Shown here piece by piece: positions 32,285 through 50,535 of a stretch of 64,000 bases of DNA. A model generated the notes under the pieces. It was given only the letters and a program-made list of their open reading frames with translations. It did no database searches and was not told the DNA's origin. Source of the DNA: Marinicella sp. (GTDB lineage: Bacteria > Pseudomonadota > Gammaproteobacteria > Xanthomonadales > Marinicellaceae). The DNA is taken from contig OZ246001.1 in NCBI GenBank assembly GCA_965230295.1, positions 2,240,001-2,304,000 on the forward strand. Reading direction: 5' to 3'. Made by a program: the position numbers and the translations under genes. Within the stretch, counting starts at the first letter, position 1. Every line of letters begins with the position of its first letter.

Positions 32285-32635
32285 ATGAATTCAAAAGATA
32301 AAAAATTTTCAAGAAAAACAGCGCCTGAGGATGGTGCAAGAATGGTTGAGACCATATTTGGTTGTAAGTGGTCATTGACGGTCTATCAATTGTTGGCCAA
32401 CGGCATCAACCGACCCGGAGCAATGGTGCGTTCGGTCGATGGATTAAGTACTAAGGTTTTGAATGAGTGCTTGCGGAGAAATTTACAATTTGGGATATTG
32501 GAGAAAATCAACTACCCAGAGATCCCACCTCGGGTTGAATACCATGTCACTGACCTGGGTGCGCATTTCATCGAGACGATTGACAAGATCCAACAACTGC
32601 AAGTTTTGATTGATGCAGAACAGCGGGATTCATAG
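32285..32635 (+). CDS. HxlR-family winged-helix regulator
   Basis: GCKWSL, GLSTKVL, YPEIPPRVEY; divergent from the SDR gene. Confidence 0.9.
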   Translation: MNSKDKKFSRKTAPEDGARMVETIFGCKWSLTVYQLLANGINRPGAMVRSVDGLSTKVLNECLRRNLQFGILEKINYPEIPPRVEYHVTDLGAHFIETIDKIQQLQVLIDAEQRDS

Positions 32636-32672
32636 CAATTAAGTCACCATAAATTCAGGTTCGCTTCATAAG

Positions 32673-33096
32673 GAATGTTCTTGGAGCTTCATTCTGGTTC
32701 ATGGTCTGACAGGTCTTCATATTTGCTGCGCAAATAAACCGACCTTTACAGACTATTGTCTGAGCAGTTGCTTCGCACTGCATGTCTGTTTCTGACAAAG
32801 ATGAAAGCGACCACGTCGAACATGACATACTACTTCGCACGAATAACGCCATTCACATAAGGCTTCTTGACTTCGTCAAATCGCCATATGCTCATTGGCT
32901 ATTCTCTTCGCCTCTGATTGGCCTACATGGATGTAGGTCTGCCGCGATAGCAAGGAGCGATAGCGGCCGCAACATCAAAAGCTCACGGCTAATCAATCAT
33001 TTCATCAAGGCTTCTTTGCTTTGCAAAATCGCCATGATTGCATGATTTGCCTAACCGGCTCGGCGGGTCAAGCTGCTCAGCAGCTTTCCACTGGAT
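32673..33096. ncRNA. Unidentified structured non-coding element, long copy (candidate ncRNA or ssDNA element)
   Basis: Four blocks shared with 50360-50535; compensatory changes; nested hairpin arms. The repeat is certain, but RNA status is unproven. Confidence 0.5.
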
Positions 33097-33192
33097 CACT
33101 GATAATCTTTCCGTAACTCAACAGCAACGAATTCTTAATGATGACTCAATTAAGATTCATTGCTTTTTGATTAACCCACTTGAGGAAAGAAC

Positions 33193-34086
33193 ATGAGTTC
33201 GATAAAAACAATTTGCCTGCTGATCTTGCTTGGTACCGTACCGACATCGTGGGCCGTGACTGAGGCCCAAAAAATAACCATCCGTGATGCATTGAAAAGC
33301 AAGGATTGGGACACGGCCTTAGATTTGGCGGAAGATTTGGTTGATGATCACCCCACCAGTTCTGTGGCGCATTATTTATTGGCCAGTGCGATACGAATCA
33401 AAATGCAAGAAGTCAGCCAAGTGCGGGCCATGTTCTCTTTGGGCGATTACAAAGAAGCTTTGGCGAAGAGTATTGAGTTGGATCCCCAAAACATCGATGC
33501 CAGGACTGAAGAAATTGGATTTTATTTGTTTGCTCCAGGTGTGGCAGGCGGAGACAAGGATTTTGCTGCTGAACGCATCATTGAGCTGAAGACTGTAAAC
33601 CTTTTTAGTGGCTTACAAATGGAAGCCCAATTGGCTGCCGTTAATGAAGACACAGATAAGCGATTACAACTGCTGCAACAAATGGTTGAGCTTGAACCGG
33701 GAAACCCACAAGCTTTGATGCAGCTGGGCGGGTTAATGGTTCAATTGAAACGGTTTGAACAGGCTGAGGATTCGTTCATCAAAATCACTGGGGAAGAAGA
33801 CCCGACATGGCCGTTGGCGGCACAGTACCAACGAGCCAAGTGGCGTATTTTGGCTAAGCAAGAATCTGATCTGGCGATTGAATTGTTGCGCAGTTATCAA
33901 CAACAATTACCCAATATTGAAAGTGAGGTCAACTTACCATCTTTGGCTGCGGCTTTGTGGCGAGAAGCCTTGGCATTTGAAAACAAAGGCGATGAAAAAA
34001 GTGCCATTGCATTGCTGAAAAAGAGTTTATCAGCGGATGGTGAATTTGAACCTGCAGAAGATGATTTGGACCGCTTGACTGACTAG
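33193..34086 (+). CDS. Exported TPR-repeat protein
   Basis: GAGGA RBS, signal peptide, TPR-like helices (AHYLLA, KSIELDPQN, MVELEPGN). Confidence 0.8.
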   Translation: MSSIKTICLLILLGTVPTSWAVTEAQKITIRDALKSKDWDTALDLAEDLVDDHPTSSVAHYLLASAIRIKMQEVSQVRAMFSLGDYKEALAKSIELDPQNIDARTEEIGFYLFAPGVAGGDKDFAAERIIELKTVNLFSGLQMEAQLAAVNEDTDKRLQLLQQMVELEPGNPQALMQLGGLMVQLKRFEQAEDSFIKITGEEDPTWPLAAQYQRAKWRILAKQESDLAIELLRSYQQQLPNIESEVNLPSLAAALWREALAFENKGDEKSAIALLKKSLSADGEFEPAEDDLDRLTD

Positions 34087-43707: not shown

Positions 43708-43772
43708 AGACACACCCATAAGTAAGCCTTAACTCATAAAATTCAAATCATTGCAACTGTGGCATTGAACTA

Positions 43773-44040
43773 GGGCCTGTTAACACTAAATAAATGACGA
43801 CTGTTATGACTGAAAACATCACTATCAAGGCGCGAATCGCGTGATTTGGCATGCCAATTGAGTGATGAGCAACGCAGGGTGTGGTGTTTTCAGCCTTAAC
43901 CCATCGGGCTGGACCGTATTTTCCACCCACCGGCCTTAGCCAATCGTTCATGTGGAGTGACCACATATCACGATGGGTGGGCGTTGTTGGCTGAAAAATA
44001 CGGTTTCAGCAGTGGCCATTTATTTAGTGTTAACAGGCCC
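43773..44040. mobile_element. MITE, 268 bp, non-autonomous
   Basis: Perfect 24-bp TIRs GGGCCTGTTAACACTAAATAAATG / CATTTATTTAGTGTTAACAGGCCC, TA on both flanks, internal hairpins, no transposase. Confidence 0.9.
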
Positions 44041-44143
44041 TAAGCCAATCATACCGACCGTTGGTCGCCATTTTTATGCCATTGAGACCAGAAGTGGGTT
44101 TGAAAGGCTTTGCAGAGTGCCCAGTTGTCGCTAGAATTATTTC

Positions 44144-50253: not shown

Positions 50254-50359
50254 GATATTCTCCTGTTAAATTTAATCAAGTAAGGTTCTTCCCTTGATTA
50301 CCTGCTTCGTCAAATCAGGATGAATTTTTTTGAAAAATCGAAAAAACCATGAAAACAAA

Positions 50360-50535
50360 GAATGCTCTTGGGTCTTCATACATTTTTGTTTGTGCTGAGA
50401 GCAGCCGAAGTGACCCAAACAAAAATGAAAGCGACCACGTCGAGCATGTCTCACAACCTCACGCTCTTCGCCTCTGATTCGCTACGCTCACCAACCAGCT
50501 CGGCGGGTCAAGTTGCTAGGCAACTTTCCTTGGAT
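50360..50535. ncRNA. Unidentified structured non-coding element, short copy
   Basis: Same four blocks as 32673-33096 with minimal arms. Confidence 0.5.

Follow-up and report, generated by a model that had tools for sequence, protein, structure and literature searches.

Pneumococcal BOX and enterobacterial ERIC sequences are built of fixed end modules with optional internal ones at set positions, show strong predicted folding and have no known transposase. Integron attC sites and the attP site of the CTX phage are recombination sites that act in folded, single-stranded form; they have conserved mismatches and arms that vary, and are joined scarlessly. Insertion sequences of the IS200/IS605 type are excised and inserted on the lagging-strand template without duplication (PMC5027513). 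They and their derivatives, the PATEs, lack terminal inverted repeats (TIRs) and target site duplications (TSDs), have hairpins near both ends and are excised and inserted precisely. Orientation bias is also reported for IS families with other mechanisms (PMC3971601). REP sequences and REPINs (PMC3116915) are palindromes of 20-40 nt or their doublets that are dispersed, intergenic, structure-forming and non-autonomous, with RAYT as a possible single-copy trans-acting enzyme.

The element described here has traits in common with each of these systems. Its modular layout is that of BOX and ERIC, compared by description rather than by sequence, but it resides in different taxa, and it has covariation across bacterial families and scarless insertion at empty sites. 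Like attC and attP, it would depend for its function on a folded single strand and on scarless recombination; unlike attC, its copies are dispersed singly and not in cassette arrays, and no R-box (GTTRRRY) was seen by reading. The general description of REP/REPIN systems, including a possible single-copy enzyme acting in trans, suits it as well, whereas its length of 148-642 nt and its eight helices do not. By analogy, it appears to work most like a single-strand element of the IS200/IS605 type, although it fails the target-motif and enzyme tests of that family. In common with that type it has no TIRs beyond a 6-nt match, no TSD and precise insertion, and in two of four genomes young or high-scoring copies have one given strand on the lagging-strand template. 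Its P2 hairpin starts 22 nt from the 5' end and its P5 hairpin ends 3 nt from the 3' end, but the rest is a conserved multi-helix junction, and neither TnpA nor TnpB was found in several copy-rich genomes; no Y1 TnpA with matching ends was found in the host. In contrast to IS608, its subterminal hairpins, P2 and P5, do not resemble each other, and the conserved target base (G at +4) lies 3' of the insertion point instead of in a 5' tetranucleotide, the 5' flank being only A-W-W.

We propose, with somewhat more confidence than doubt, that this is a partner-less, structure-dependent, non-autonomous family of mobile DNA in Marinicella-type gammaproteobacteria, which moves via a folded single strand. 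The two copies in the window, which is the whole 64-kb stretch of Marinicella DNA analysed, are laid out as follows.

32670 to 33089, plus strand: copy 1, a mosaic form of 420 nt made of the core and three arms (one following A, one separating B from C and one separating C from D); its nhmmer pieces lie at genome 2272667-2273095
32670 to 32692, plus strand: block A of copy 1, with the 5' end AAGGAATG and the 5' strand of helix P1, ATGTTC, at 32675-32680
32693 to 32790, plus strand: arm module 1 of copy 1, in place of the short P2 hairpin, recurring in other copies
32797 to 32824, plus strand: block B of copy 1, with the 3' strand of P1, GAACAT, at 32818-32823
32825 to 32903, plus strand: arm module 3 of copy 1, of the GGCTTCTT-hairpin-AAATCGCC type, at the P3 bulge
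32904 to 32919, plus strand: block C of copy 1 (CTCTTCGCCTCTGATT), the 5' strand of P3 and the invariant TCTGA
32920 to 33052, plus strand: arm module 4 of copy 1, a long arm replacing the P4 mini-hairpin and closed by TGATTGGCC/GGCTAATCA
33053 to 33089, plus strand: block D of copy 1, with a CCAACC-like junction, the 3' strand of P3, the P5 hairpin at 33070-33086 and the 3' end TCC
50357 to 50529, plus strand: copy 2, a near-minimal form of 173 nt with a lengthened P2 hairpin
50362 to 50367, plus strand: 5' strand of P1 in copy 2, ATGCTC, pairing with GAGCAT at 50442-50447
50381 to 50427, plus strand: extended P2 hairpin of copy 2 (CATTTTTGTTTG ... CAAACAAAAATG)
50464 to 50509, plus strand: block C, P4 mini-hairpin (TTCGC-TAC-GCTCA), invariant CCAACC and 3' strand of P3 in copy 2
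50510 to 50529, plus strand: P5 hairpin AAGTTGC-TAG-GCAACTT and 3' end TCC of copy 2, with the target-side G at 50533

An earlier note on this DNA had described a modular element present twice, with shared blocks in the same order. The blocks are indeed where it placed them (B at 32801 and 50425, C at 32904 and 50464, D at 33058 and 50498), with no chance match to any of them in 100 shuffles. Within the window the count of two also stands: blocks B and C occur exactly twice each, and D twice exactly besides one chance-like site with two mismatches. For the genome it does not, as nhmmer gives 140 chained elements there, 105 of them at 40 bits or more. The limits of 424 and 176 nt had to be corrected to 32670-33089 (420 nt, from the empty site described below) and 50357-50529 (173 nt). 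Pairwise alignment of the two copies shows an identical block order with intervening stretches of different length. Copy 2 is a covariance-model match at genome 2290357-2290533 (141.5 bits), and its longer P2 hairpin is common to one other copy in the alignment.

The genome of origin (G000, 4,008,074 bp) carries approximately 105-140 copies. BLAST with copy 2 as query gave 47 matches there and, counted as local hits, 98; an nhmmer profile built from 14 canonical copies gave 224 pieces, which chain into the 140 elements mentioned; and fuzzy matching found 112 A blocks (up to 3 mismatches), 78 D blocks (up to 4 mismatches) and 66 complete A-D pairs. The commonest form has 148 nt, AAGGAATGTTC...GCAGCTTTCC, with copies 91-100% identical, and the minimal core of 148 nt runs from 5'-AAGGAATG to GCAGCTTTCC-3'. 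Longest forms reach 642 nt, and eight copies of at least 580 nt are near letter-for-letter alike when their alignment is inspected visually. What sets these long forms apart is additional modules, which occur at four fixed positions of an otherwise unchanged core: behind A, within B, ahead of C and between C and D. With its 420 nt, copy 1 is an intermediate form. Its spacers, taken earlier as unrelated in sequence, turned out to be recurrent modules, which many other copies share at 92-99% identity; arm module 1 (about 100 nt), which forms a hairpin in the minimum-energy fold of copy 1, is present in 8 of 24 aligned copies and in the long forms. Where block A alone matched, the sequence is a minimal or truncated form or belongs to a four-copy arm-1 variant.

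Some details of the long and short forms were noticed on the side. In long copies (e.g. L103 258-899) the arms hold three paralogous units of the form GGCTTCTT-hairpin(loop TTC or TT)-AAA(T/C)CGCC, similar to the P1b-P2 arm of the core itself (GGCTTCAT-hairpin-AAAGCGACC), as though they had originated by internal duplication. At genome 1313006-1313530 (L102 207-730) there is a head-to-tail array of truncated units devoid of P5 (122 nt x 4.3, 96% identity), and another array of P5-less units is seen in another species (G015, L151 302-622; 150 nt x 2.1); unequal exchange and rolling-circle copying are both possibilities for their origin. At the other extreme, forms of about 30 nt on the minus strand, at genome 205227-205257 and 918511-918540, pass from block A directly to TTCCTT and can be folded as GGAATG...CATTCC, which suggests that the two ends of the element alone may persist.

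The element is non-coding. Its four internal ORFs match no Pfam family at cut-off (best E-values 0.15 and 0.81). The earlier note could match the element to no known riboswitch, intron or ribozyme. In Rfam 15 there is no match at gathering score in the 64-kb window, and a permissive scan of 32500-33300 returned nothing better than E = 0.99.

The fold was examined in an alignment (A2) of 65 distinct short copies, of which 26 come from the same genome and 39 represent other species in the genus, made with MAFFT and not fitted to any structure. RNAalifold found 19 pairs in it, 14 with compensatory change. A fuller model comprises eight helices with 44 pairs in total (P0, P1, P1b, P2, P3a, P3b, P4 and P5): P0 pairs the ends of the element; P1 is ATGTTC/GAACAT; P1b consists of three pairs, formed by the G run in block A (TTGGGG) with GACC in block B; P2 is a hairpin; the stacked helices P3a and P3b join blocks C and D and have the mini-hairpin P4 inside; P5 is AAGCTGC/GCAGCTT. 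In this model 85.7% of the cells are paired and 34 of the 44 pairs have changes on both sides. Compensated cells number 287, against 76 +/- 8 in shuffles (none of 500 reaches the observed value) and 27-59 in slid controls. Both differences that had been read as compensatory between the two window copies, ATGTTC/GAACAT against ATGCTC/GAGCAT and AGCTGC-TCA-GCAGCT against AGTTGC-TAG-GCAACT, are true compensatory pairs and correspond to helices P1 and P5, each covarying in the 65 copies; for P1 at least eight different complementary variants can be counted by eye. The proposal made from two copies, of a conserved core that has covarying stems and arms able to expand, is borne out by the larger set.

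Single-stranded joints of the core are invariant (TTCTTGGG, GAAAGCGACCACGGCG, TCTGA, CCAACC and GGCGGGTC). Arms are inserted at the tips of P2 and P4, in the internal loop between P1 and P1b and at the bulge in P3, and they fold in the minimum-energy structure of copy 1, the covariation covering the core helices; the spacer hairpins ATGGTCTG/CAGACTAT and TGATTGGCC/GGCTAATCA, pointed out before, are both in that structure. Two inner positions of P4 are unpaired in 61 and 62 of the 65 copies and look like conserved mismatches, since they are almost never paired; on the plus strand they are pyrimidine-pyrimidine. Twenty-four further matches, in an alignment fitted to the model, gave 85.1% paired cells and compensation in 41 of 44 pairs; most come from genomes or loci outside A2, including another family, although G031 and G035 also contributed rows to A2. 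Even in this second bacterial family, where copies have about 60% G+C, the helices are kept by compensatory change. Separately, core positions 17 and 54 (A2 columns 17 and 84) covary as G/A, A/G, T/A and C/G, with 42 of 65 combinations non-standard and 23 standard, and may form a conserved purine-purine pair that alternates with Watson-Crick pairs.

Which strand folds is less evident from pairing alone. Copy 1 folds better than its shuffled controls on either strand, with z = -3.0 on the plus strand and -5.0 on the minus strand; the minus strand folds at least as well as the plus one, and on the minus strand the P4 mismatches become tandem purine mismatches under a GNA-type loop. Loops of the GNA type are especially stable in DNA. 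It had been argued that G-U pairs mark the plus strand as an RNA, and this argument fails because G-T cells (70) are about as frequent as A-C cells (57), with most of the G-T cells, 44, in a single column.

The element's mobility is shown by near-identical strains, and likewise by sister species, that differ in having a copy. A contig of run X2, from a near-identical strain, joins 32669 directly to 33090 and omits 420 nt beginning with AA and ending with CC, with 3 of 355 letters different in the flank; what it omits is exactly AAGGAATG...GCAGCTTTCC, i.e. 32670-33089, an empty site of the kind that the earlier note had advised to look for. For a copy in the genome G001, the syntenic spacer is empty in 5 of 5 other species, and their alignment puts the insertion at ...GCATAA(A)^ATCG.... 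The syntenic site of copy 2 in G003 is also without the element, with a spacer too diverged to fix the boundaries, and the flanks of copy 1 are 8 kb apart in that genome, too far to serve for comparison; contigs of X2 do not bridge the site of copy 2. Precise loss of the element, instead of an ancestral vacancy, could also account for the empty alleles.

Insertion is precise, scarless and without target duplication. No duplication is seen at the two empty sites (copy 1 and the G001 copy), and in 66 complete elements, compared in all registers, none rises above shuffles except a marginal 11 against 6.9. The only terminal inverted repeat is GGAAWG, 6 nt. In the 5' flank there is A at -5 in 74 of 112 cases and W at -4 and -3, while the 3' flank has three A/T-rich bases and then G at +4 in 61 of 78, and G stands at +4 in 7 of 7 copies read in the distant genome. 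Triplets of the P4 loop have no guide-like relation to the flanks by eye in 13 copies.

Orientation of the copies was related to replication. Cumulative GC skew has its minimum at 1.715 Mb, with dnaA at 1,721,237, and its maximum near 3.83-3.87 Mb. Among 105 elements, the A-to-D strand proved to be the G-rich one in 76 (p = 5e-6 against 0.5; p = 0.009 against the 60% of crude ORFs that are on the leading strand), and it is the lagging-strand template because it is G-rich. By class, the bias is strongest in near-identical short copies (14/15) and long copies (7/8), and diverged single copies (9/15) have none. For other genomes the sign of the local 20-kb skew was used as a proxy; tried on 400 random sites of the genome of origin, it gave the right answer for 381. 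By this measure G032 repeats the bias (22/26; 15/16 among high scorers), and there is none in G001 (5/11) or G031 (12/21); being real in two genomes with many similar copies and absent in these two, the bias is not a constant of the family. Relative to neighbouring ORFs the orientation is random (26/23/29/27 in four classes), which makes the closeness of both window copies to a plus-strand gene, remarked upon earlier, a coincidence.

The distribution of the family is narrow. Of 23 other genomes of the genus, 16 have a BLAST match to it; 12 genomes that represent other families of the order have none. G000, G031, G032 and G034 are rich in copies, and G003, G013 and G017 are free of them. The covariance model detected it in 16 of 151 genomes of the order, from 5 of 64 genera, among them one genome of another family with 17 copies at about 60% G+C. 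An exact-pattern scan with one genome per species (185,579 species) returned 52 stretches, all in Marinicella spp. or in bins named as Gammaproteobacteria, Proteobacteria or Xanthomonadaceae bacteria, and plasmid and phage collections had no match to the element. On this sequence evidence the family does not extend beyond Marinicella-type genomes and a small number of relatives. A search of published literature for its motif strings gave, among the matches listed, only primers or unrelated uses (subscription journals and supplements were outside the scope), and a search for Marinicella together with 'repeat' gave, among the matches listed, nothing on genome repeats. Together with the negative Rfam and Pfam results, this leaves us with a family of structured, modular, non-autonomous mobile elements that is real, well defined and, it appears, not described before.

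A natural question is what moves it. The only HUH candidate found is a single RAYT-like Y1_Tnp gene of 187 aa at genome 1669261-1669821 (L091 1300-1863), and a protein atlas search with it returned only Y1_Tnp clusters. This gene is flanked by a REP family of its own, different from our element (GGAGCG-NNGAC-TTCAG-TCNNC, inverted), with 39 matches at up to 4 mismatches, covarying stems and frequent inverted, REPIN-like doublets. Its ortholog is present in 4 of 24 genomes of the genus (G000, G031, G003 and G012). Profiles of other movers gave nothing in the genome of origin: there is no match to TnpB (PF07282); none to reverse transcriptase (RVT_1, PF00078), as a group II intron, a retron or a SINE-like element would have called for, with control genomes matched; none to the IS110 DEDD transposase (PF01548; controls matched), as for a derivative of the bridge-RNA recombinases IS110/IS1111; and none to the IS91 Y2 HUH profile (PF04986), for which the control matched in no genome either. 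Self-BLAST of the same genome shows no transposase-encoding repeat of at least 500 bp, only paralogous genes and the long element itself. No A...D pair there encloses an ORF, matches to block A alone have no transposase downstream, and no recurrent neighbour gene exists around 52 element loci. An explanation of the element by a HUH transposase, a nuclease or a reverse transcriptase that occurs along with it is not supported, the sole Y1/HUH gene being not co-distributed with it. The option of a folded ssDNA mobile element, also raised in the earlier note, gains support from the two empty sites and from the replication-strand bias of young copies.

Several explanations compete with the one we favour. 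The fold may act at the RNA level, as a structured non-coding RNA (sRNA, cis-regulator or ribozyme) under selection, mobility only spreading the gene. A complex multi-helix junction with invariant joints is what functional RNAs possess, one wobble position is T-G on the plus strand in 36 of 65 copies, and an orientation of 72-85% to the leading strand would suit a highly transcribed unit. We nevertheless regard this reading as unlikely: no Rfam family matches, no promoter-like or terminator-like site common to the copies of the core rises above chance, outside the one wobble column G-T cells (26) are rarer than A-C cells (45), P4 keeps its plus-strand pyrimidine-pyrimidine mismatches in nearly all copies, and more than a hundred near-identical copies are unusual for an RNA gene. 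Owing to the random orientation to neighbouring ORFs, read-through transcripts would carry either strand. Another route, which we think still less probable, is a kind of transposition that has not been described: the folded single strand, its ends clamped by P0 and P1, would be cut out and pasted at the replication fork by a new enzyme family, by host factors or by self-catalysis. It would explain why copy-rich genomes have no known transposase, why insertion is scarless and why such an intricate core is conserved across families.

More familiar machinery accounts for the data less well. That the single RAYT-like transposase moves the element in trans, as a REP/REPIN-type sequence, would agree with the finding of no other HUH candidate and with both the missing TSD and the lagging-strand bias, which are expected for HUH enzymes; the arm hairpin TTGAC-TTC-GTCAA resembles the RAYT-adjacent REP GTTGAC-TTCA-GTCAAC, and 5 of the 39 listed REPs are within about 200 nt of a copy of the element. 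Yet the gene is flanked by the other REP family and not by the element, and the two are not co-distributed: G003 has the RAYT ortholog and no element, while G032 (99% complete), G034 and G016 have many copies and no match to PF01797, which leaves this explanation with a small probability. Membership in the REP/REPIN-RAYT group was rejected as well, as the element neither flanks RAYT, nor shares its REP, nor co-occurs with it. Least credible of all, in our judgement, is a classical MITE, an internally deleted DDE-type IS mobilised by a TIR-recognising transposase. It is true that the element is small, non-coding, intergenic and multi-copy, and that its ends share the inverted GGAAWG, with about 14 of 22 positions matching by eye if one gap is allowed; against this, neither the 66 complete copies nor the two empty sites have a target duplication, the genome has no transposase-encoding repeat of 500 bp or more, and the covarying helices are internal and long-range rather than terminal repeats. 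As a class, the classical MITE was set aside for want of a TIR of about 15 nt or longer, of a TSD and of a parent IS with the same ends.

For the preferred reading, a non-autonomous element that moves as folded single-stranded DNA, we may suggest the following course of events. The fold itself would be the substrate of the moving machinery, with P0 and P1 bringing the two ends of the element together in the folded single strand. The replication fork would be the place of movement, the A-to-D strand serving there as lagging-strand template, and insertion would be directed into A/T-rich sites of the form A-W-W^N-N-N-G. A putative trans-acting enzyme would do the moving, and in at least two copy-rich genomes it is probably not a recognisable Y1/HUH transposase.

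Dispersed small repeats abound, but it is rare for one to combine a complex fold proven by covariation with scarless mobility, also proven, and the lack of any candidate transposase. Should the mover turn out to be a new enzyme or some host pathway, its mechanism would be added to the short list of single-strand DNA transposition systems, which have already yielded useful tools. More than a hundred natural variants per genome, with optional arms, provide material for dissecting which of the helices are needed. For annotation, the family accounts for many signals described as 'structured intergenic' in genomes of Marinicella and its relatives.

The window has also an unrelated repeat of about 275 bp, at 43770-44043, whose terminal inverted repeats, TTAACACTAAATAAATG / CATTTATTTAGTGTTAA, are perfect over 17 nt. 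The genome has eight more copies at 90-99% identity and some at about 73-74%, and by its sequence this repeat looks like a classical MITE without a parent IS in the genome.
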